From an uncultured Chloroflexia bacterium (GTDB taxonomy: Bacteria > Chloroflexota > Limnocylindria > Limnocylindrales > CSP1-4), in contig CAWEYB010000001.1 of NCBI GenBank assembly GCA_963813225.1, forward strand, positions 256,362 to 320,361: a DNA stretch of 64,000 nucleotides, read 5' to 3'. Below are positions 1,221 to 45,061 of the stretch, piece by piece (the first letter of the stretch is position 1; every line of letters begins with the position of its first letter). Both the position numbers and the translations under genes were made by a program. Under the pieces are notes generated by a model. That model was not told where the DNA came from. It worked only from the letters and a program-made list of their open reading frames with translations, and did no database searches.

Positions 1221-2444
1221 TCAGTACATCAGGATCAGTGGCACGTCGGGCCGAACTGCTCGCGCGCTGCGGTCGCGATCGCCGAGTCTGGCTGACCGCC
1301 GAGAGATCAGGATCGGCGACCTGCGAGTCGTCGAGATCTGCGGGCGCCATGACAGGGCGGCCCGCGAGCGTGGCGCCCGGCGTAATGCGGGTTCGAGTCG
1401 AGGAACGCCTCGATTTGGCATTCAGCGAACCGTGAGGTCTCGAGCAGGTGGAGGGCATGCGTGCCGGTCCCCCACACGTAGATCCGCTCGCCGCGTCGCG
1501 CGAGCGATGCGATCCGCTGCACGACCAGCCTCGGTCTCGGCGCTTCAGATCGACTGACGTACTCGCGAACGTCATCCGACTCCGGACTCGGTCAGGTCGA
1601 CGGCGGGCGCTCGATCGGTCCCACCGATAGATCGCCTCGAGCGCTGGGCCGTGTCCGATCCGTGCCCAGCTGGCAGGACGACGTGCGCTCGCTACGAGGG
1701 AATAGCCCTCCGCCTCAAGCGGCGTTCGCGAGTGATGTGCGGGTGAAGTAGTTGATGTGTTCGACGCTGAACTCCTGGAACGGAGCATCAACGTGATCCT
1801 TGAACGCGCCGGCGTCCGGAACGCGTAGATACAGGATGTACCGCCGGTCTGCAGAAGTGCCGAGCGACTGCGCGCAGGCTGCCGACGTGGGTCAAGCAGA
1901 TGCTCGAGGACGGCACACGTAGCTGACGATGACCGAACTTTTCGCCCCACGCTCGCTGCCTCGTCGCAAGCCGCCGACGACGACATCGAGAGCGGCTCGT
2001 CTCGTGCGCACGACGAACGGCCTCGGCGACGGGTCGACGCCGTGAAGAGGCGACTGAAGCCCGACATGCCGAGCGCAACCAGGAAAGTCGCCGGTTGCGG
2101 TGCCGACATCGAGAATCGGCGCTGTCGCGGTCGGCGACGTGTGCGGCGACGAACCGGGCCAGGTCGGCAAATCGCCGCGGTCATCCGAACCGGAGACCTG
2201 GGCTCCTTCTGCGCTCAGGTCGTACTTCGACGAGTCGACGTAGTACTGGGCGAAGCGCTGCTCATCGGGAAGATCCGGAAGCAAAACACATGCCGCAGTC
2301 GCTGCATGCGACGACGTCGTATCCGTCCCCGATGCTGCCTCGGGCGAAGTCTGCGAAGCCGCTGACGATAGAGGACGATCGTTGTCGCCGAGTCGCACAG
2401 ACCGGGCAGGTTCGTGCGGTATCTGGAGCGCCGCGACACGTCAC
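1221..2444 (-). CDS. NDP/CDP-hexose C-methyltransferase-like enzyme (Zn-ribbon, class I SAM methyltransferase and C-terminal C-MTase domain). The frame is broken at least 4 times as sequenced.
   Basis: Conserved pieces are spread over three frames: CPVCA...[77 protein letters not shown]...[11 protein letters not shown]. The proposed GTG start forms a GTGA overlap with a stop at 2441-2443. The stop at 1221-1223 abuts the rfbG start. Confidence 0.55.
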
Positions 2445-3266
2445 GTCGCCATGCGGCTGCGGCTCGTCCGTCCAGACGGCCCACGGCGCTTCGCCCGAGT
2501 CCCAGAGGGCCTGGAGCGTCCGCACGTCGCGCAGGGCGTCCATCGGCTGCCAGAAGCCGCGATGTCGGTACGCCACCAGCTCGCCGTCGGCGGCGAGACC
2601 CTCGAGCGGTGGCGCTCTCGAAGAGCGTGTCGTCGCCGTCGATGCGGTCGAGGACGGCCGGCTCGAGGACGAAGAACCCGCCGTTCACCCAGGCGCCGTC
2701 GCCGATCGGCTTCTCCTGGAAGGCTCGGACGCCAGGCGCCACGACCCCGCCGACGATCTCGTCGTCGTCGATCTCGAGGGATCCGAAGCGGCCCGATCGG
2801 CTGGACCGCCGTGATCGTCGCGAGCTTGCCGTGCGCACGGTGGAACTCGACCAGCTGGGCGATGTCGACGTCCGCGACGCCGTCGCCGTAGGTCAGCATG
2901 AACGTCTCGTCGCCGATGTAGTCGCGGACGCGCTTGATCCGCCCGCCGGTCTGCGTCTCTGCGCCCGTGTCGACCAGCGTCACGCGCCACGGCTCGGCCG
3001 GCGTTCTGGTGGACGACCATCGAGTTGTCGCGCATGTCGAAGGTCACGTCGGACATGTGCAGGAAGTAGTTCGAGAAGTACTCCTTGATCACGTAGCCCT
3101 TGTAGCCGAGGCAGACGACGAAGTCGTTGAACCCGTAGTGGCTGTAGATCTTCATGATGTGCCACAGGATCGGCCGCTCGCCGATCTCGACCATCGGCTT
3201 GGGGCGGGAGGCGGTCTCCTCGGACAGGCGCGTGCCGAGACCGCCGGCGAGGATGACGACTTTCAC
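2441..3266 (-). CDS. rfbF: Glucose-1-phosphate cytidylyltransferase; about 3 frame breaks as sequenced
   Basis: [38 protein letters not shown] (frame 1), [21 protein letters not shown]...[11 protein letters not shown] (frame 2), [10 protein letters not shown]...[12 protein letters not shown] (frame 3) and [26 protein letters not shown] (frame 1). GGAGG lies upstream of the GTG at 3264-3266. Confidence 0.85.
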
Positions 3267-3379
3267 AACGCGCGCGTCCCCCTCCGGCAAATCTTGGTGG
3301 CTGGCCGCAGTGTATCGTCCACGGCCACCGGGGGGCTGCCATGTCCTCCTGGGTCCAGACAGGGTGCTCGACGCCGGAG

Positions 3380-4773
3380 ATGACGGACCAGCAGATGGTT
3401 GCGCGACACGATCGCGCACGTGCCTTCCGTGCAGGCTGGCGCGCCCTGAGTCGAGCCCGTCTCGAAAACGTGTATCTCGTTGTCGCGCTGGTCTGGGGTG
3501 TGGCGCAGGTGTTCCTTATGCCTCCGCTGCAGGTTCCCGACGAGGGTGATCATTGGTTCCGGTCATGGGCGATGACGGACGGACAGTTCACGTCCGACAG
3601 CCAGGGAACCTCACGCTGCCTGGAGTCTTCGCCCGGACCATCGATATCTACAGGGCCGCTACCAACGACCACACGATCCTGCTGGGATCGCTCGACAGCG
3701 AGCCAGGCTTTTCTGGCTACGGAGATATGTTCAACGGGCCCGGTCCAGCCGGCCCTGTGAAGGTCCTCTCTTACGTATCGCACTACGGCCCGATCGGTTA
3801 CCTGCCGCAGGCCGTAGGAGTCGGCGTGGGGCGACTCATCGGCGCGCCACCGCTTATCAGCTTCTACCTCGCGAGATTGGCGAACCTTCTGGTTGCCGTC
3901 ACGCTGCTCTTCTTCGCGGTCCGCCTCGCGCCCTTCGGCAAGCAGCTCTTCGTGCTCATCGCCCTGCTACCCGTCACGATGCTGGAACTGGCCAGCGTCT
4001 CCTGTGATGCGTTGACCATCGCTGGAGCGATCCTCTTCATATCCCTCGTGTTGTGGGCGAGCACGCGGGCTACGCTGCGACGAAGGGATCTCGCCGTCCT
4101 GTTGGCGTCGGCAGCCCTCTTCTTGAACGTGAAGTACGGCTACGAAGCGTTGATCGTGCTGTTGCTGCTTATCGTGCCCAGGCAACTGGGGGGTCGCGCC
4201 CGGTACGCCGGATTCGTCGTCGCCGCAGCGATCCTCGTGAACGGCGGGCTCCTGCTGGACTTGATCGTCACCCGTGTCTCACTTCCCGCCGCGGGCCCGA
4301 ACGTGCAGCTCTCGTTCATCCTTCAGCAGCCACTGGACTTCCTCGGCATCGTCTGGGCCAACCTGGCGGACACCATGTTCCGAGCGGTCGCCAGCATCGG
4401 GATCCTGGGTTGGATCAGTCTCGCCCTCCCACCTGTCTTCTATTCGATCGCCCTGTCGGGTGGGCTCGTCCTCTTCTTCTGGACGGGCGAAGACGTCCAC
4501 CTGGAACTCTGGCGGCGGGTGTTGTTAGCCGCGGCTGCTGCCGCGGTCTACGTGATGATCGCTATCGCGCTGTACGCATTCTTGGAGCCGATCGGGAGTC
4601 GGCAGATCACCTTCCAGGGCCGCTACCTCATCCCCGTACTGCTCCTGCTCCTGCTATCGGCGTACGGGGGTCACATCGTCCAGAGACATCGCGCCGCGCC
4701 ATTCCTAGCCGTCGTCGTGTTCCTGATGATGGTCATCAACCTCCAGACCATCGTCTCCTTCTACTACACGTGA
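3380..4773 (+). CDS. DUF2142-type polytopic membrane protein (putative glycosyltransferase); one frame break near 3590
   Basis: The N-terminal piece ...[25 protein letters not shown] (ORF 3341-3760) continues in the frame of the 406-aa membrane ORF 3553-4773. There are many predicted transmembrane segments. Confidence 0.6.
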
Positions 4774-8818: not shown

Positions 8819-8827
8819 TGCTACTCT
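8819..8827 (+). promoter_or_regulatory. Extended -10 promoter candidate (TGCTACTCT), 9 nt upstream of the GTG at 8837; near-leaderless
   Basis: TGnTAnnnT motif in the 70-bp divergent intergenic region. The same motif type recurs upstream of cpaB, the atp operon and parA. Confidence 0.3.
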
Positions 8828-38191: not shown

Positions 38192-38410
38192 CTACGCGGG
38201 CTGGATGAAGATGGCGAGCAGGCCGACGACGATCGCGAGGACGCCGAGCCCTTCTGCGAAGGCCGCGAGGATGATCGCGATACCGCGGATCTGGCCGGCG
38301 GCGTCCGGGTTGCGCCCGATCGCCGCCGCGGCCATGCCGCCGAGGATGCCGATGCCGATGCCCGGGCCGAGTACGCCAAGGGCTGCGAGTCCGGCGCCTG
38401 TGTAATCCAT
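38192..38410 (-). CDS. atpE: F0 ATP synthase subunit c
   Basis: MDYTGAGLAALGVLGPGIGIGILGGMAAAAIGRNPDAAGQIRGIAIILAAFAEGLGVLAIVVGLL. An AGGAGG RBS lies upstream. Confidence 0.9.
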   Translation of the reverse strand: MDYTGAGLAALGVLGPGIGIGILGGMAAAAIGRNPDAAGQIRGIAIILAAFAEGLGVLAIVVGLLAIFIQPA

Positions 38411-38487
38411 CGTGTTCCTTCCTCCTGTGCCCCGAGCCTGCGGCTCGGGATCATGGTGACCGGGGTGAGTCGCGCTCGTCCGGCGCG

Positions 38488-39518
38488 TCAGTGTGCGGGC
38501 TGGAGTGCCGGCGGTTCGTGGCCTTCGAGCGTGTCGAGGGCCTCCTCCGCGACGTGCCCCTCTTCGTGGTCGTGGCTCTCGATCGCGAGCGTGATGAAGA
38601 CCAGGGTCAGGATGCTGAAGATCAGCGCCTGGATCGCGTTGAGCAGGAAGTCGAGCCCGAGCAGGCCGACCGGGATGATGGCCAGGGTCAGGCCGGTGAT
38701 GACGCTCAGCGCGACCTCGCCGCCGTAGATGTTGCCGAAGAGTCGCATCGACAGCGTGATGGGCTTGACGAACTCGAGCATCAGCTCGACCAGCCCGACG
38801 AACAGCGCGATGAACCCGGCGGCGATGCCCGATCCGGAACTCGTAGAACGGGAAGAACTTGCCGGCATAGCCGCGGAAGCCGAGCTTGCGGAAGCCCTCA
38901 CCCTCGAAGATGACGAACGACACGAGCGCCAGGCCGAGCGTGATGTTGACGTCGCTCGACGGCGCGCGCAGCCACTCGACGCGACCGACGCCGGGCACCA
39001 GCCCGATCCAGTTCGAGAAGATGATCAGCAGGAAGAACGACACGAACAGGCCGAGGTAGGGCCGGGCGCTCGGGCCGGCGATGCCGATGCCGAAGTCGGT
39101 CAGGAACTCGTAGAACGTCTCGAACACGTTCTGGCCGCGGCCGGGGACCAGCCGGCGGCCACGGGTCAGCAGGATGGCCCCGATGAGGACCAGGATGATG
39201 ACCAGCCACTGGGTCACGATCGTGTTGCTGATGCTCGGGTAGAAGACGATGAGCTGGCTCGGATCCGGGGCGGGCGCCGAGGTCAGCGATCACGAGCGTC
39301 TCGGGCGCCGGGAACTCCAGCGTGCCATTGATGAAGCAGACGGGGTAGGGGCACGGATCGCCGGCCGCGCCGTCCTTGGGGAACGGCGGCACGAGGATGA
39401 CCGCGACGATGTTGAGGACGATGATCGCGCCGATGAACAGGAACCAGCGCTGGGACAGCCCGCGACCGGACGTCGGCTGGGGCTCGGGCGCGGGGGCCTC
39501 GGCGGTCCCCGGGGTCAT
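38488..39518 (-). CDS. atpB: F0 ATP synthase subunit a with an N-terminal extension of about 100 aa; two frame breaks
   Basis: Conserved ITLSMRLFGNIYGGEVAL core. The upstream pieces VFETFYEFLTDFG and MTPGTAEAP...WFLFIGAIIVLNIVAVILV..CPYPVCF are in other frames. Confidence 0.85.
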
Positions 39519-39608
39519 GTCCTGCTCGCTCGACACGCTCGCTCCACACACAGGAGCGCGGCTCGACGCCGCGCTCGGTTCCCCCTTAGCCGGTCGGGCA
39601 GTGACCGG

Positions 39609-39833
39609 TCAATCGAATGACTTCAGGAACCGATCCACCATCCGGATGATCATCACGGTCCCGGCTCCGGCGCCGAGGAAGAACCCGATGAGCATGAAGA
39701 CCGGAAAGGTCGTCCCCACCTGCCCGTCGACCCAATGGCCAGCGAGCGCTCCGACCAGCGTCGTCACCAGGAGTGAGATGCCGATCTCCGAGAAGAGGAC
39801 TACGTAGGCCCCGCCTCGTCCGGGCTCGATCAT
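39609..39833 (-). CDS. AtpZ/AtpI-like small membrane protein (ATPase_gene1 family)
   Basis: MIEPGRGGAYVVLFSEIGISLLVTTLVGALAGHWVDGQVGTTFPVFMLIGFFLGAGAG. It occupies the first position of the atp operon. Confidence 0.65.
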   Translation of the reverse strand: MIEPGRGGAYVVLFSEIGISLLVTTLVGALAGHWVDGQVGTTFPVFMLIGFFLGAGAGTVMIIRMVDRFLKSFD

Positions 39834-39856: not shown

Positions 39857-39865
39857 AGTATAGCA
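39857..39865 (-). promoter_or_regulatory. Extended -10 promoter candidate for the atp operon (TGCTATACT on the minus strand)
   Basis: It lies in the 66-nt gap between the adhesin stop (39900) and the atpZ-like start (39833). Confidence 0.35.
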
Positions 39866-39899: not shown

Positions 39900-42702
39900 T
39901 CAGCGGTCGAGGGCGAGGGCATCCAGGTAGACCCGACCGCCGCCGATCGGGCGGATCTCGATCGTGTGCGTGCCCAGCGATGAGAAGTGGCGATGGAAGA
40001 TGAGCCGGTGGTAGCCGTTGCTCGAGACGTGGAGGTTGATCGTCGCCGCCAGCACGCCGTCGATCCAGACCTGGGCGGTCCCGCTGGCGGTCGTCTTGGT
40101 CGCGATCCAGGCGACGTCGCGCATCGAGCCGGTATAGCGGGCGCGTGCTGACGTCGACGATCGCGTAGCGGTGGCTGCCGCCCAGCGCCTGGCTGTTCGA
40201 GCTCGTCGTCCAGGAGCCCGTGTAGACCACGCTCGAGCTGGTGTTCTGGATCGCGGACGGGCTTGAAGGCCGGCCCGTAGACATACGCGCTGACGTTGCC
40301 CTGACGGTCTGTGGCCCGGACCCGGAAGCGGTACGTCGTGTTGGTCGTCAGCGTCCGGGTGACCGAGGTCGCCGTCGCGCTCGACAGGCTGACCGTGCCG
40401 TACGAGCCGCCGTTGACGCTGACCTGGACCTGGTACTTCGCGATCCCGGTGCCGCCCGTGTCCGCGCCTGACCAGCTGATCTTCTCGCGCGTCGTCGTGC
40501 TCCCGACGACCTGGTTGTAGAACGATTCGACCGGCGCGACGACCGTCGGCTTGGCCGTGTCCTTGACCACGGTGACCAGCACGGTCGCCGAGTCCGTCCC
40601 GCCGTGGCCGTCGCTGATCGTGTAGGTGAAGACGTCGTTGCCGACGTACATCTGGACGGGGTCATAGGTGAGGCCGGTGCCGCCGCCGGTGATCGCGACC
40701 GTGCCGTGGGCTCCGTTCGTCTTGCCGGTGATCGTCAGCGTGTCGTGCTCGACGTCGCTGTCGTTGGCCTTGACCGCGAGGGCGGTCGGGCCGGCGCTCT
40801 CGGGGACGGTCAGGCCGGCGTCGTTCACGGCGTTCGGTGGGTCGTTGACCGGCGGTGATCGTGACCGACACCGTGCCGGTCGCCGATCCGCCGTGCCCAT
40901 CGGAGATGGTGTAGGTGAAGCTGTCGGTCCCGTTGGCGTTGGCATTCGGCTTGTAGGTCAGCCCGGTGCCCGATCCGGTGATGACGACGACGCCCTTGGC
41001 GCCATCCGTCTTGCCCGTGATGGTCCGGGCGTCGCCGTCCGGGTCCGTGTCGTTGCCGAGCACAGGGACCGCGGTCGCCGGCGCGTCCTCGAGGACCGTG
41101 ATGCTGTCCGGCGCCGCCACCGGGGCGTGGTTGACGTGGGTGATCGTCACCGACACGGTGGCGGTATCGGTCCCGCCGTGCCCGTCCGAGATGGTGTAGC
41201 GTGAAGCTGTCGCTGCCGCTGATCCCGGCGTTCGGCTGGTAGGTCAGGCCGCTGCCCGATCCGGTGATGACGACGACGCCCTTGGCGCCGTTCGTCTTGC
41301 CCGTGATGGTCAGCGGGTCGTGGTCGGCATCGCTGTCGTTGGCCAGGACGTTGATGGCTGTCGGCGATGCGTCCTGGAGCAGGGTCTTCGCGTCGTTGCC
41401 CGCGACCGGCGCGGTGTTGGTGTTGTTGATCGTGACCGACACGGTGCCCGTATCGGTCCCGCCGTGCCCGTCGGAGATGGTGTAGGTGAAGCTGTCGGCA
41501 CCCGTCGCATCGGTCGTCGGATGGTAGGTCAGGCCCGTGCCACCACCGGTGATCACGACCGAGCCCTTGCCACCGTCCGCCTTGCCGGTGATCGTCAGGG
41601 TGTCGAGGTCGGCATCGGTGTCGTTGCCCAGCACGTTCACGGCCGTGGCAGGTGCATTCCGCCCGACAGTCAGGCTGTCGGCGACGGCGACCGGGGCGTG
41701 GTTCGTGGCCGAGACATCGATCGTCATGGTGTTCGGCGTGGGATCGAGGTCGGTCCCGCCATCCGCGGTGCCGCCGTCGTCCCGGACCTGGAACGTGAAC
41801 GATGCGTAGCCGGGGCCGTATGGACCTGCTCCCGCAGCGAAGGTGAGGTCGCCGCCGGTGACGTCGGCGACGGGGATCGAGTCGCCCGCCAGGACGGGCG
41901 TGCCGTTGTCGGCGAGGACGCCGGCCGCCGGCAGCGTCGCGATGGTGACGGCCGACAGGTCGTCCGGGGGCGTGTCGTGCGCGTCCGTGAAGCCGAGATC
42001 GGCCGGGGCGAAGACGTACGGCGTGTCGGTCGTCGTGGCGACGGTGTTGTCGGTGCCGTCCGGCGCATCGTTGACCGACGCGACGTCGACGGTGACGGTC
42101 GCGGTGTCGGTCGAGCCCACGCCGTCGTCGAGCGTATAGGTGAAGGTGTCGATCCCGTTCGCATCTCCATGCGGCGCATAGGAAACCGACAGGCCGTCGA
42201 CCGCGATCGTCACGTCTCCGAGCGTGCCCTGGGTCACCGCGGTGATCGTCGAGCCGGAGGGGAAGATGTCATTGGCGAGGACGTCGAACGAGACCGGGCT
42301 CGGCAGCTGGTCCTCGACGATGGCTTCCGGGTCGTCTGTCGCGTCGACGCCGACGATGACGGTGACGGTCCCGTCATCGGTCGACACGCCGTCGGTGACC
42401 GTGTAGTCGAAGGTGTCGAGACCGTGGTAGTCGGTGTCGGGCGCATACGTGAGGGTCAGCTGGTCGCCGGCCACCTCGACCGTGCCGTGACCCGCTGGGC
42501 CCGCGGAAACGATCGTCAGCCCGGCGCCGAGGTCGTTGCCGAGCACGTCGATCGTCGTCGCAGGCGCGTTGACAGGGACGGCAGCGTTGTCATCGACCGC
42601 GGTCGGGTCCGCGGCAGACACGATCGCCGGCAGCAGCCCGGCGAGAAAGGCGCCCATGAGCAGGGCGGTGGCGGCGGATCGCAACCGATCAGCAGGGAAC
42701 AT
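39900..42702 (-). CDS. Secreted repeat adhesin-like protein of about 934 aa: signal peptide, 7 cadherin-like/Ig-like repeats of about 95 aa, an FN3 domain and a C-terminal beta-sandwich (CBM-like) domain; about 4 frame breaks
   Basis: [30 protein letters not shown] signal peptide. Repeats of the form VLGNDTD.D.D.LTITGKT.GAKG.V.ITG.GTGLTY.P.....[24 protein letters not shown]3: [25 protein letters not shown]...[13 protein letters not shown]. Tail: [13 protein letters not shown]...[22 protein letters not shown]. Confidence 0.7.
40555..41703 (-). repeat. Four tandem coding repeat units of about 288 bp (95-97 aa) inside the adhesin gene
   Basis: Unit boundaries are near 41703, 41415, 41125, 40840 and 40555. 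Peptide identity between units is high. Two of the frame breaks (about 41200 and 40855) fall in this block. Confidence 0.6.
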
Positions 42703-43842
42703 CGATGGTCACCGCTTGTGCGTCTTCGCCACCCGACCCTGACACGGTCAGGATGACGGTGTAACTCGACTGACCGCCGTCAAAGGCGTGGCCGACAACC
42801 TTACTCGACGACGTGTTCCCGTCATCGAAGTCCCAGTGGTAGCTGGTCGCGTGCGTCGAACCCGACGCGTCGAACGTGATCGAGGTCCCCGGTGCAGCGC
42901 ATGTCGCCGATGCGGAGATCTTGGCGACCGGCAGGGCGGGGGTCGGGGTCGGCTTCGGGGTGGGTGTTGGTGTCGGCTTGGTCGTCGGCTTCGCGGTCGG
43001 CGTCGGTGTCGGGATCGGTGTCGGTCTCGGCGTCCGTCTCGGCGTCGGCGCCGGGGCGCCCTTCGACGACGGAACGGGCTTGGGAGTCGGGCTCGGACCG
43101 ACGACAGGCGTCGCAGAAGCCGCCCCCGCCTGAGCGCTGACCGAGGGCGTCGCTGCGGGAGTGGCGGCCGAGCCTCCAGCCGCCGCGGCGGAGGCCGGCG
43201 TCGAGGACCGTCCGCTTGACTGCTCGCTCGGGTCGGCACCGGTCACGGCGAAGGCCGTCGGCTGAGGCCCTCCACCGAGTCCTCCGGGCCAGACGAGGAT
43301 CGCGACGATGCCGAAGACGGCGAGCGCGATCAGCGCCACCCCGGCGTCGCGGACCAGCCGCTCGCGGGGCGCCGCAGGCTCAGCTGGCAGGGAACCCGCG
43401 GGACCTGTCGGGGCGCCGGCCGCGACACGCCCGGCGGTGCTGGCGGCGACGTGGCCTGCAGCGGCCGCACGCGCCGCCGCAGCCGTGGCGGCCGCACCAG
43501 CGGCGGCCGGCGGGACAGGGCTCGTGGAGACCGGCGGGACGGGTGCGTCGGGCACCCCGATGCGATACGCGACCTCGTCCGCGGTCAGGGCTGCAGCCGT
43601 CTCGCCCGTATCGGGCGGCGTCGGCGGCGCCGTCGGCCTGCCGGTCAGGCGGCGGACGAGGTACATGCCGATCGATCGGTCGACGGCGTCATGCACCCCG
43701 CGCGACGGGCCAGACGGCGCGGAGCCTTCGGGCGCCTTCGGGGGGTCGAAGAGTTGCGGACCGTGATCGACCAGCCGACGATCCCGACGAGCACGACCGC
43801 CGCAGCGGCCGCAGTGATGGCGATGACAAGGTCAAGCGACAT
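42689..43842 (-). CDS. Membrane-anchored protein with a Pro/Thr-rich linker and a C-terminal PKD domain; one frame break near 43750
   Basis: N-terminal TM helix [24 protein letters not shown] and a second TM helix [17 protein letters not shown]. Linker PTPKPVPSS...[15 protein letters not shown]-like [39 protein letters not shown]...YTVILTVSG. The 3' end overlaps the adhesin start by 14 nt. Confidence 0.6.
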
Positions 43843-43930
43843 GGATGTCCTGAGCGGACGCGAACCGCGTTCGCGTGACGGACGGGGATGCTAGCACTCG
43901 TTCGGGACCCCGCCCATCGCGTCAGAAGAC

Positions 43931-45061
43931 CTAGTCACCGGGGACCTTCGGCGGCGTGATCGTGTCGTAGGCGTCGGCCTCCAGCTCGTCGGGCCGGTCG
44001 AAGTCGCCGCGTGTCGGAATGAAGAGGATCAGGCCGAACGCCACGAACAGGCCGACGAATGCATAGACCTGGGTGACGCCCGACAGCAGCAACGAGAGCA
44101 CCGCGAGCACGAGACAGATGCCGTAGATCGCGAGGACGGTCTGCCGGTGTGACAGCCCGAGGTCCAGGAGCCGGTGATGGATGTGCGTCCGGTCGGGGCT
44201 GAAGGGCGAGCGCCGCTCGGACAGCCGGCGGACGATGATCCAGAACGTGTCGATGATCGGGACGCTGAGGACGAGCAGCGCGACCGCCACCTTCGCCGTC
44301 CCGAGGATGGCGAGCACCGCTAGCGTGTAGCCGACGAACTGGACGCCACTGGTCCCCGCGAAGATCGTGGCCGGATGGAAGTTCCAGCGCAGGAACCCCA
44401 GCAGGGATCCGGCCAGCGCGAAGCAGAGGACCGCGATGAGCGGCTGGGCGACCACCTGGGTCGTCAGGCTGATGATCCCGAGCGTCACGGCGGCGATGAA
44501 GGCCACCCCCGACGACAGGCCGTCCAGGCCGTCGATCCAGTTGATGCTGTTGATCATCCCGACGATCCAGAAGATGGTGAGCCCGGCGGCGACCGGCCCG
44601 GTGAAGCGGAAGTCCGGCCCGAACGGGTTCGTGATGAAGGTGATCGAAACCCCGAGGGCGACCGCGGCGCCGGCCAGGGCGATCTGGCCGATCAGCTGGT
44701 ACCGGGCGCGGAGGTCGAACAGGTCGTCCATCGCGCCGAGACCGGCCGCGACGGCGCCACCGAGCAGCAGGGCTACGACCTCGGACGTGTCGAAGCTGAA
44801 CGGGATCGGCACGAGGTCGGCCGTCTGGTTGATGAGCAGGAACAGCGCGGCGACCAGCAGGAACGCCGCGCTGACGGCCAGACCGCCGCCTCGCGGCACC
44901 GGGATGGTGTTGATCCGGCGGGCCTCAGGCCGGTCGACGATCTCGTAGCGCAGCACCACCCGGCGAACGACCGGCGTCACGACGAGGGCGATGAGGGCGG
45001 CGAGGATGAAGACGGCCAGGATCGGAGCGACGAAGTCCCCGACGTTCGAGATGAACGTCAT
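43931..45061 (-). CDS. WecA/TagO/Rfe-type polyprenyl-phosphate GlcNAc-1-phosphate transferase (MraY/GT4 family)
   Basis: 376 aa starting at MTFISNVGDF. RRINTIPVPRGGGL, GAMDDLFDL, NSINWIDGLDGL, PDRTHIHHRLL. Confidence 0.85.
   Translation of the reverse strand: MTFISNVGDFVAPILAVFILAALIALVVTPVVRRVVLRYEIVDRPEARRINTIPVPRGGGLAVSAAFLLVAALFLLINQTADLVPIPFSFDTSEVVALLLGGAVAAGLGAMDDLFDLRARYQLIGQIALAGAAVALGVSITFITNPFGPDFRFTGPVAAGLTIFWIVGMINSINWIDGLDGLSSGVAFIAAVTLGIISLTTQVVAQPLIAVLCFALAGSLLGFLRWNFHPATIFAGTSGVQFVGYTLAVLAILGTAKVAVALLVLSVPIIDTFWIIVRRLSERRSPFSPDRTHIHHRLLDLGLSHRQTVLAIYGICLVLAVLSLLLSGVTQVYAFVGLFVAFGLILFIPTRGDFDRPDELEADAYDTITPPKVPGD

Follow-up and report, generated by a model that had tools for sequence, protein, structure and literature searches.

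We analyzed a pair of genes, one for a membrane anchor and one for a secreted repeat adhesin, that lie between wecA and the ATP synthase (atp) operon of an uncultured soil bacterium of the class Limnocylindria (Chloroflexota). With a probability of about 0.75, this interval is a family-specific, ancestral and labile cell-surface locus that lies between the wecA unit and the atp operon and is transcribed separately from both. The pair was studied in a stretch of 64,000 nucleotides (GenBank assembly GCA_963813225.1, contig CAWEYB010000001.1, positions 256,362 to 320,361), hereafter the window, from a metagenome-assembled genome (MAG) of 6 contigs (3.28 Mb; completeness, 77%). The window has a G+C content (GC) of ~70%, and its wecA-atp genes are on the minus strand. 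An earlier note on this DNA had described the pair as an accessory surface module set into a housekeeping block conserved in Actinobacteria and Firmicutes; the host is not from either phylum. Its family within Limnocylindria is probably CSP1-4, a soil family that contrasts with the genome-reduced Limnocylindraceae (PMC13212565); adhesins and the cell surface go unmentioned in that paper. Genomes of the same-order sister family in our sample were 1.0 to 1.4 Mb long, in keeping with that contrast.

Intervals were fetched using wecA and atpB as landmarks, and 24 members of the genus were classified. Eight genomes (G000, G003, G010, G012, G015, G017, G019, and G048) carried an anchor with a PKD domain followed by the adhesin, and two (G008 and G020) carried the PKD anchor without the adhesin. 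The anchor ended in its Pro/Thr stalk or was shorter, without PKD, in 10 genomes (including G011, which has a Big_9 relic); it was fused directly to an fn3 plus carbohydrate-binding module (CBM)-like module in 1 (G007); and the interval was essentially empty in 3 (G002, G004, and G005). Presence thus varies between related species, which bears out the accessory character claimed earlier. The relic in G011 (L013; G011:C3:487914-488000) is ~90 nt long, follows the PKD-less anchor, and is 69% identical to the Big_9 query over ~29 residues, out of frame; it reads as direct evidence that the adhesin was lost there by deletion. The gap in G005 (L003, G005:C3) measures 473 nt, lacks the anchor, and contains at ~1247 to 1585 (minus strand) a fragment resembling the helix-turn-helix N terminus of a transposase, which hints at a deletion of the locus mediated by an insertion sequence.

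Outside the genus, the anchor was found in at least four further genera (G045, G077, G084, G090, and G103), and anchor and adhesin together in a genome of another genus (G087); in six genomes of other genera of the family, the interval was empty. In the sister family with reduced genomes, wecA was followed directly by atpZ/atpB. In deeper families (f3/f5; L078 to L080 and L090), wecA and atpB lay 2 to 8 kb apart, with genes for a DUF72-like protein, an S9 peptidase, a response regulator, and CorA between them; no adhesin was found in these large intervals. Because the deeper families hold unrelated genes there, the wecA-atp interval is no fixed block in Limnocylindria, and the tight block assumed by the earlier note dissolves in the sister families, where the interval is empty or filled with unrelated genes.

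A scan across GTDB returned 15 further loci with an adhesin adjoining atpZ, beyond G003’s own contig (L024), and wecA was located 1 to 3.6 kb upstream in 11 of these 16 loci. Across at least 20 species, down to the deepest branches of the locus tree, the adhesin is found at the wecA-atpZ position. In this tree (maximum likelihood; wecA, atpZ, and atpB only), adhesin carriers stand on the deepest ingroup branches as well as on derived ones, so the locus is probably old and has been lost many times. The two sampled species nearest to G000 (G008 and G001) are without adhesin. Orthologues of wecA were 56 to 89% identical across the family.

Some loci departed from these arrangements. In L029 (CAVURK010000003.1, 3000 to 8300), a truncated adhesin of 697 amino acids (aa) (P0017) abuts atpZ, and sufBD, a Rieske protein gene, and sufC replace wecA and the anchor; this is a rearrangement that broke inside the locus. 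In L018 (G001:C3:51350-55000), atpZ/atpB are 92 to 97% identical to those of the window, and wecA is frameshifted and only 55 to 75% identical, a contrast that stems either from poor assembly or from recombination with its boundary at the variable locus. A contig labelled Verrucomicrobiia (L028; DATLVO010000116.1) has the end of a Big_9 adhesin before atpZ/atpB genes that are 70 to 75% identical to those of the window; the contig probably comes from a Limnocylindria genome and was mis-binned or mislabelled. A 756-aa protein from an ENA contig (P0059) joins Big_9 repeats to ATPase_gene1 (atpZ), most likely through a frameshift or gene-calling artefact in which the adhesin is read into atpZ.

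Upstream regions were aligned after a generic sigma-70 and terminator scan, which found terminator-like sequences at only two places, neither of them on the coding strand. In all 14 aligned relatives, GGTGCTAGCATC was the sole conserved block upstream of the anchor gene. The 40 nt preceding atpZ, CTGCTA(T/C)ACT...CAGGTCGCCCATG, were kept in 18 of 18 aligned genus members regardless of upstream content, and the candidate atp promoter previously proposed at 39857 is therefore supported by sequence conservation. Both motifs fit TGCTAnnnT. The same pattern occurs at 8819 to 8827 (plus strand), just upstream of a gene start. It was located 9 to 15 nt from the anchor start codon in G006, G014, G021, G023, and G024, a spacing that suggests leaderless or near-leaderless mRNAs in the lineage. 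With one conserved −10-like motif ahead of the anchor gene and another ahead of atpZ, the pair is probably a separate unit: it looks like a transcription unit of its own between wecA and atp, and, contrary to what had been supposed, probably does not sit inside a housekeeping operon.

The domain anatomy of both proteins supported their surface or adhesin-like nature (Table 1). Hidden Markov models (HMMs) placed the adhesin repeats far above curated cutoffs (Pfam Big_9, 401.5 bits in 7 stretches, cutoff 23.6; NCBIfam NF012211 [tandem-95], 285.9 bits in 6 stretches, cutoff 90), with stretches assigned to Big_9/Cadherin_5, and the seven cadherin/Ig-like repeats of ~95 aa described earlier are real; the last four are repeats of 285 to 289 nt at the DNA level. 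Orthologues were 522 to 1,382 aa long and varied in repeat number. The fn3 domain was borderline: the piece from the window scored just over the Pfam cutoff of 25 (25.8 bits) and matched by fold, as had been claimed, but the orthologue in L021, a contig of a “Microflora Danica” (MFD) MAG found in a scan of GTDB species genomes for which part of the large protein served as the query, fell below it (21 bits). A check for sortase or other covalent anchoring motifs, suggested by the earlier note, came back empty: sequence inspection of the adhesin found no LPXTG near the C terminus, no lipobox, and no Cys, nor was a type I secretion system (T1SS) signal or a retention module found in it. In a literature search, tandem-95 repeats came up only in passing, in annotations.

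The last ~120 aa of the adhesin had no Pfam match and no match in a PDB sequence search. The same search with the whole tail gave weak FN3 matches only, so a fold search was needed, and the last 218 aa were modelled with AlphaFold2 (AF2) using 27 homologues. The first half of the model matched FN3 tandems; the second half matched CBM6, CBM35, CBM36, and related jelly rolls (Foldseek E values, 8e-5 to 2e-3; root mean square deviation, 3.5 to 4.7 Å over 120 to 132 columns). Against isolated CBM35/36 modules, the TM-score was 0.58 to 0.63 (normalized to the module) at 11 to 19% identity. The C-terminal beta-sandwich of the earlier description is thus recovered as a CBM6/35/36-like fold, and, going by the model, this domain probably binds glycan.

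The tail was not confined to the adhesin. The last 218 aa, used as a query against the protein collection, gave 145 matches, mostly at the extreme C terminus; in metallophosphoesterases and a few others, the module was near the N terminus or internal. Other carriers were subtilisins, GH25 lysozymes, a GH18 enzyme, a multicopper oxidase, a papain-like protease, and kelch, PASTA, and FG-GAP proteins. In a whole-genome profile search, genomes of the family gave 2 to 10 module matches each, up to about five spanning the full module; the reduced sister family and two deeper families gave none, and a third deeper family gave a match to the fn3 part only. The anchor and the fn3-CBM tail are confined to one and the same family. 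A custom HMM of the anchor N terminus found no match among the tail-module proteins P0004 to P0123; the fusions of anchor and tail (P0151 and G007) were on the anchor side.

The anchor gene encodes a lineage-restricted membrane anchor without annotation, for which 30 homologues were found among 5.8 billion proteins, all unnamed and only some with PKD. It starts with a transmembrane helix, and past the frame break coding continues in a 335-aa open reading frame (ORF). The AF2 model has helices at residues 3 to 29 and 159 to 184 and a PKD sandwich at 305 to 381 (predicted local distance difference test [pLDDT], >90); the stalk is disordered. The cytoplasmic loop, with three conserved short motifs (one opening DV[I/V]), was modelled at low confidence with short helices over the motifs. 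A folded cytoplasmic domain was considered and rejected, since AF2 gave these low-confidence helices only and Pfam and NCBIfam gave no match; neither database matched any part of the protein outside PKD. PKD itself was well above its gathering scores (PKD_4, 50.3 bits, cutoff 27; PKD, 38.5 bits, cutoff 23.5; custom HMM, 115.7 bits), so that the membrane protein with Pro/Thr linker and PKD domain stands as first described. Cys residues occur at positions 315 and 384.

Neither gene is a single open frame in the window, where five single-base breaks cross the pair. An ORF scan of the wecA-atpZ gap gave four overlapping ORFs (335, 625, 371, and 232 aa) in differing frames; three-frame translation of the large gene gave one coding path from 42702 to the TGA at 39902 to 39900 through four shifts, all +1. 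Aligned to window positions 43965 to 33250 (95.0% identity over 10.7 kb), L021 carries intact ORFs of 384 aa (124 to 1278) and 932 aa (1265 to 4063), keeps the 14-nt overlap, and shows single-base differences from the window at precisely the five break points. Outside the indels, the coding sequence is intact, and the proteins are 94 to 100% identical to those of L021. Anchor ORFs are likewise uninterrupted in G008, G001, and G010. Much of the earlier two-gene model survives this comparison: 39900 is the exact stop of the large gene and 43842 the exact start of the anchor gene, the length of ~934 aa holds, the 14-nt overlap (42689 to 42702) is real, and the gap between wecA and the small atp leader gene, both borne out by Pfam, measures ~4.1 kb. 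Its continuous open frames do not survive, the five breaks having been passed over in silence.

Frame breaks were also found in the ATP synthase genes of the window, with atpB in three frames (one in relatives), atpH in two, atpG in two, and atpD in at least three. The relatives are MFD long-read MAGs, and several few-contig ones gave split wecA or atpB matches. Of 15 insertions in the window relative to L021, counted in the first 44 of 54 indels, 7 lay in or adjoined GATC (40252, 40162, 39290, 38832, 37376, 36513, and 34639). For four GATC insertions (two in the adhesin gene and two in atpB), the reading frame puts the window in the wrong, and the extra base makes the GATC; the pattern suggests that basecalling or polishing went wrong systematically, not at random. 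Because essential atp genes are equally broken and L021 is intact and differs exactly at the breaks, we take all five to be long-read assembly errors, roughly one per kilobase. Long-read MAGs of the MFD project carry about one indel per kilobase, ATP synthase genes included, and therefore “pseudogenes” and odd ORF lengths in such MAGs call for caution.

The history of the locus could be told otherwise. One alternative, implied by the earlier note, is that a conserved housekeeping block recently received an accessory adhesin cassette by horizontal transfer; this would suit the differences in presence between species, the lack of the adhesin in the nearest sampled species G008 and G001, and the reduced-genome sister family with wecA directly before atpZ/atpB. 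Yet at least 20 species, basal branches included, share these genes at this site, and the anchor fills the slot across most of the family; the relic in G011 and the precise absence of the adhesin in G008 and G020 point to loss. The synteny comparison that the earlier note had proposed therefore gave a split answer, in that the shared position speaks for ancestry and not all relatives carry the genes. Composition is native: GC was 0.69 for the adhesin gene, 0.73 for the anchor gene (raised by Pro/Ala/Thr codons), and 0.68 to 0.71 for housekeeping neighbors; third-position GC was 0.89 to 0.96 for the adhesin gene versus 0.94 to 0.97 for neighbors; and relative synonymous codon usage correlated with that of wecA, glyA, and atpA at r = 0.96 (adhesin) and 0.93 (anchor), the control, atpA versus wecA and glyA, giving 0.89. 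Deviant GC or codon usage, for which the note had proposed a check, is therefore absent. As the note had observed, the window has no mobility genes (integrase or transposase) or flanking repeats; repeats at the locus are the internal 285- to 289-nt Big_9 units and the linker repeats only. The locus does not look like a genomic island: it has neither mobility genes nor flanking direct repeats, its composition does not deviate, and at least 20 species carry the genes at this site. Shared position, the relic, native composition, and the lack of mobility genes largely refute a recent insertion, which we consider very improbable and reject. A decaying pseudogene pair with genuine mutations would fit five breaks within 3.9 kb and the frequent loss of the locus in relatives, but the essential ATP synthase genes have like breaks at similar density, the remaining coding sequence is intact at 94 to 100% protein identity to L021, and 7 of 15 extra bases fall at GATC in a systematic-looking way; given the broken atp genes and the intact L021 orthologues, decay is extremely improbable and was rejected too. 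Several points nonetheless weigh against an ancestral surface locus with its own transcription unit as we read it. The tree was built from wecA, atpZ, and atpB only, and many carriers entered through the adhesin query; the generic sigma-70 scan gave no promoter, and the promoter motifs are known from sequence conservation, not from mapping of transcription starts; the tail was assigned to CBMs on fold similarity only (TM-score, ~0.6, target normalized; identity, 11 to 19%; no sequence-family match); the call of assembly errors is based on comparison and on the broken essential genes; and contiguous deletion alone could explain the co-occurrence of PKD and adhesin among species that are not independent.

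For the action of the pair, the most parsimonious model is a surface device. The anchor would provide membrane attachment and a long Pro/Thr stalk with an extracellular PKD at its end; the adhesin would be Sec exported without a covalent anchoring signal, its Big_9 array, of the Ca-binding type, serving as an extended spacer and the CBM-like jelly roll as the glycan-binding end. Because they overlap by 14 nt, the two genes are probably translationally coupled, and we infer a role for the pair in surface adhesion or glycan binding. It is possible, though we hold it tentatively, that the PKD domain tethers the secreted protein at the cell surface, and/or that the CBM-like tail binds wall or environmental polysaccharide. 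A reading that we regard as similarly tentative makes the two proteins mere neighbors, the large one being released into the soil matrix, where it would bind polysaccharide or promote aggregation as a free protein, or being held at the wall by its own tail, with a separate role for the anchor. It suits the fn3-CBM tails on many unrelated secreted enzymes encoded elsewhere in the genome without an adjacent anchor, the many anchors without PKD or adhesin, so that the anchor functions alone, and L029, where an adhesin without an anchor adjoins atpZ and is preceded by suf genes. It sits less well with the overlap kept in L021, with the finding that, of 21 evaluable adhesin loci, 20 have a PKD domain that ends directly before the adhesin, and with the anchor-to-CBM fusions (G007 and P0151). 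More speculatively, and rather unlikely in our estimate, the anchor and the tandem-95 protein might be a noncovalent two-part display system of one Limnocylindria family, in which the fn3-CBM tail generally serves to keep exoproteins on the cell envelope, where a WecA-dependent wall polymer may be the attachment site.

Table 1. Features of the wecA-atpZ interval and its flanks, with window coordinates
Feature	Position	Strand	Basis
wecA (undecaprenyl-phosphate GlcNAc-1-P transferase family), left flank of slot	43931..45061	-	Pfam Glycos_transf_4, E = 1.7e-33
TGCTAGCAT, extended −10-like motif, candidate promoter of anchor/adhesin unit	43888..43896	-	46 nt before anchor start
Anchor gene: transmembrane helix 1, mostly disordered cytoplasmic loop, transmembrane helix 2, Pro/Thr linker, PKD	42689..43842	-	384 aa reading through break near 43717; L021 orthologue
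Anchor gene frame break, one base missing versus L021	43717 (near)	-	L021 alignment
Pro/Thr-rich linker with short 6/18/24-nt repeats	42934..43054	-	Translation and DNA repeat analysis
PKD domain of anchor, conserved C-terminal Cys at end	42691..42913	-	Pfam PKD_4, E = 1.6e-13 to 2.5e-13
Secreted repeat adhesin: signal peptide, 7 Big_9/tandem-95 repeats, fn3, CBM-like domain	39900..42702	-	932 aa across four breaks; L021 orthologue
Sec-type signal peptide, cleavage before AD	42613..42702	-	Translation and motif inspection
Seven ~95-aa Big_9/cadherin-like/tandem-95 repeats with NDxDxDxD motifs	40565..42612	-	HMM and repeat analysis
Frame break 1, adhesin, extra base versus L021	41201	-	Three-frame translation and L021 alignment
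Frame break 2, adhesin, extra base	40850	-	Three-frame translation and L021 alignment
fn3 domain	40260..40564	-	Pfam fn3, 25.8 bits (cutoff 25); AF2 pLDDT 96; FN3-tandem matches
Frame break 3, adhesin, extra G creating GATC	40252	-	Three-frame translation and L021 alignment
Frame break 4, adhesin, extra G creating GATC	40162	-	Three-frame translation and L021 alignment
C-terminal beta-jelly-roll, CBM6/35/36-like fold	39903..40259	-	AF2 pLDDT 96.3; Foldseek 2waa, 8j3x, 2wz8, 7ay3, 1ux7
TGCTATACT, extended −10-like motif, candidate atp operon promoter	39857..39865	-	Upstream alignment
atpZ/atpI-like small membrane protein, first gene of atp operon, right flank	39609..39833	-	Pfam ATPase_gene1, E = 2.2e-13

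Beyond the interval, atpB (38192 to 39551) encodes an N-terminal extension with an extra transmembrane helix and a C-x-(F/Y)-P-x-C motif, which is kept in other genera of the family (G084, G090, and G095). Two frame breaks, at 39290 and 38832, interrupt the copy in the window.

The pair belongs to known kinds, namely a tandem-95 adhesin, a PKD surface protein, and a CBM-like tail. The adhesin resembles tandem-95/Big_9 (PF17963)/bacterial cadherin-like proteins, BapA/LapF-type adhesins included, in its ~95-aa repeats, NDxDxDxD motifs, and Sec export. It is much shorter than the RTX/Bap giants and lacks their T1SS signal, retention module, or LPXTG, and unlike the BapA/LapF type it has a family-specific fn3 and CBM-like tail and a dedicated membrane anchor gene alongside. 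The tail shares with CBM6, CBM35, and CBM36 (2wz8, 8j3x, 1ux7, and 7ay3) a jelly-roll fold and its place as a noncatalytic module appended to secreted enzymes, but it has no sequence-family match to them, and its partners extend beyond carbohydrate-active enzymes to proteases, phosphoesterases, and oxidases; retention at the envelope therefore fits at least as well as substrate targeting. By analogy, one noncatalytic module spread across many exoproteins of one lineage recalls the S-layer homology (SLH), CWB2, LysM, and GW modules, and a secreted modular protein encoded beside the partner that may attach it recalls the scaffoldin-anchor pairs of cellulosomes, the likeness being hypothetical and functional; there is no homology to any of these, and neither cohesin nor dockerin. 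Mycobacterium tuberculosis has the order rfe (wecA)-Rv1303-atpB, in which a gene for a small membrane protein precedes atpBEFHAGDC. It belongs to another phylum, and the Limnocylindria interval differs in being empty or in holding the anchor with or without adhesin, or unrelated genes, according to family.

Limnocylindria are abundant in soil and fresh water; to our knowledge, none has ever been cultured, and nothing is known of their cell surface. Variable adhesin loci are common, and the biological surprise is modest. The locus is a clear case of a surface locus that has been repeatedly trimmed or lost, and the freshwater sister family with reduced genomes lacks it. If the two-part display system were real, it would do in Chloroflexota what sortase or SLH anchoring does elsewhere, for exoproteins such as proteases, lysozymes, oxidases, and phosphoesterases. 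The tail module marks a set of exported proteins and could define the surface proteome of the family and help in testing what it binds.

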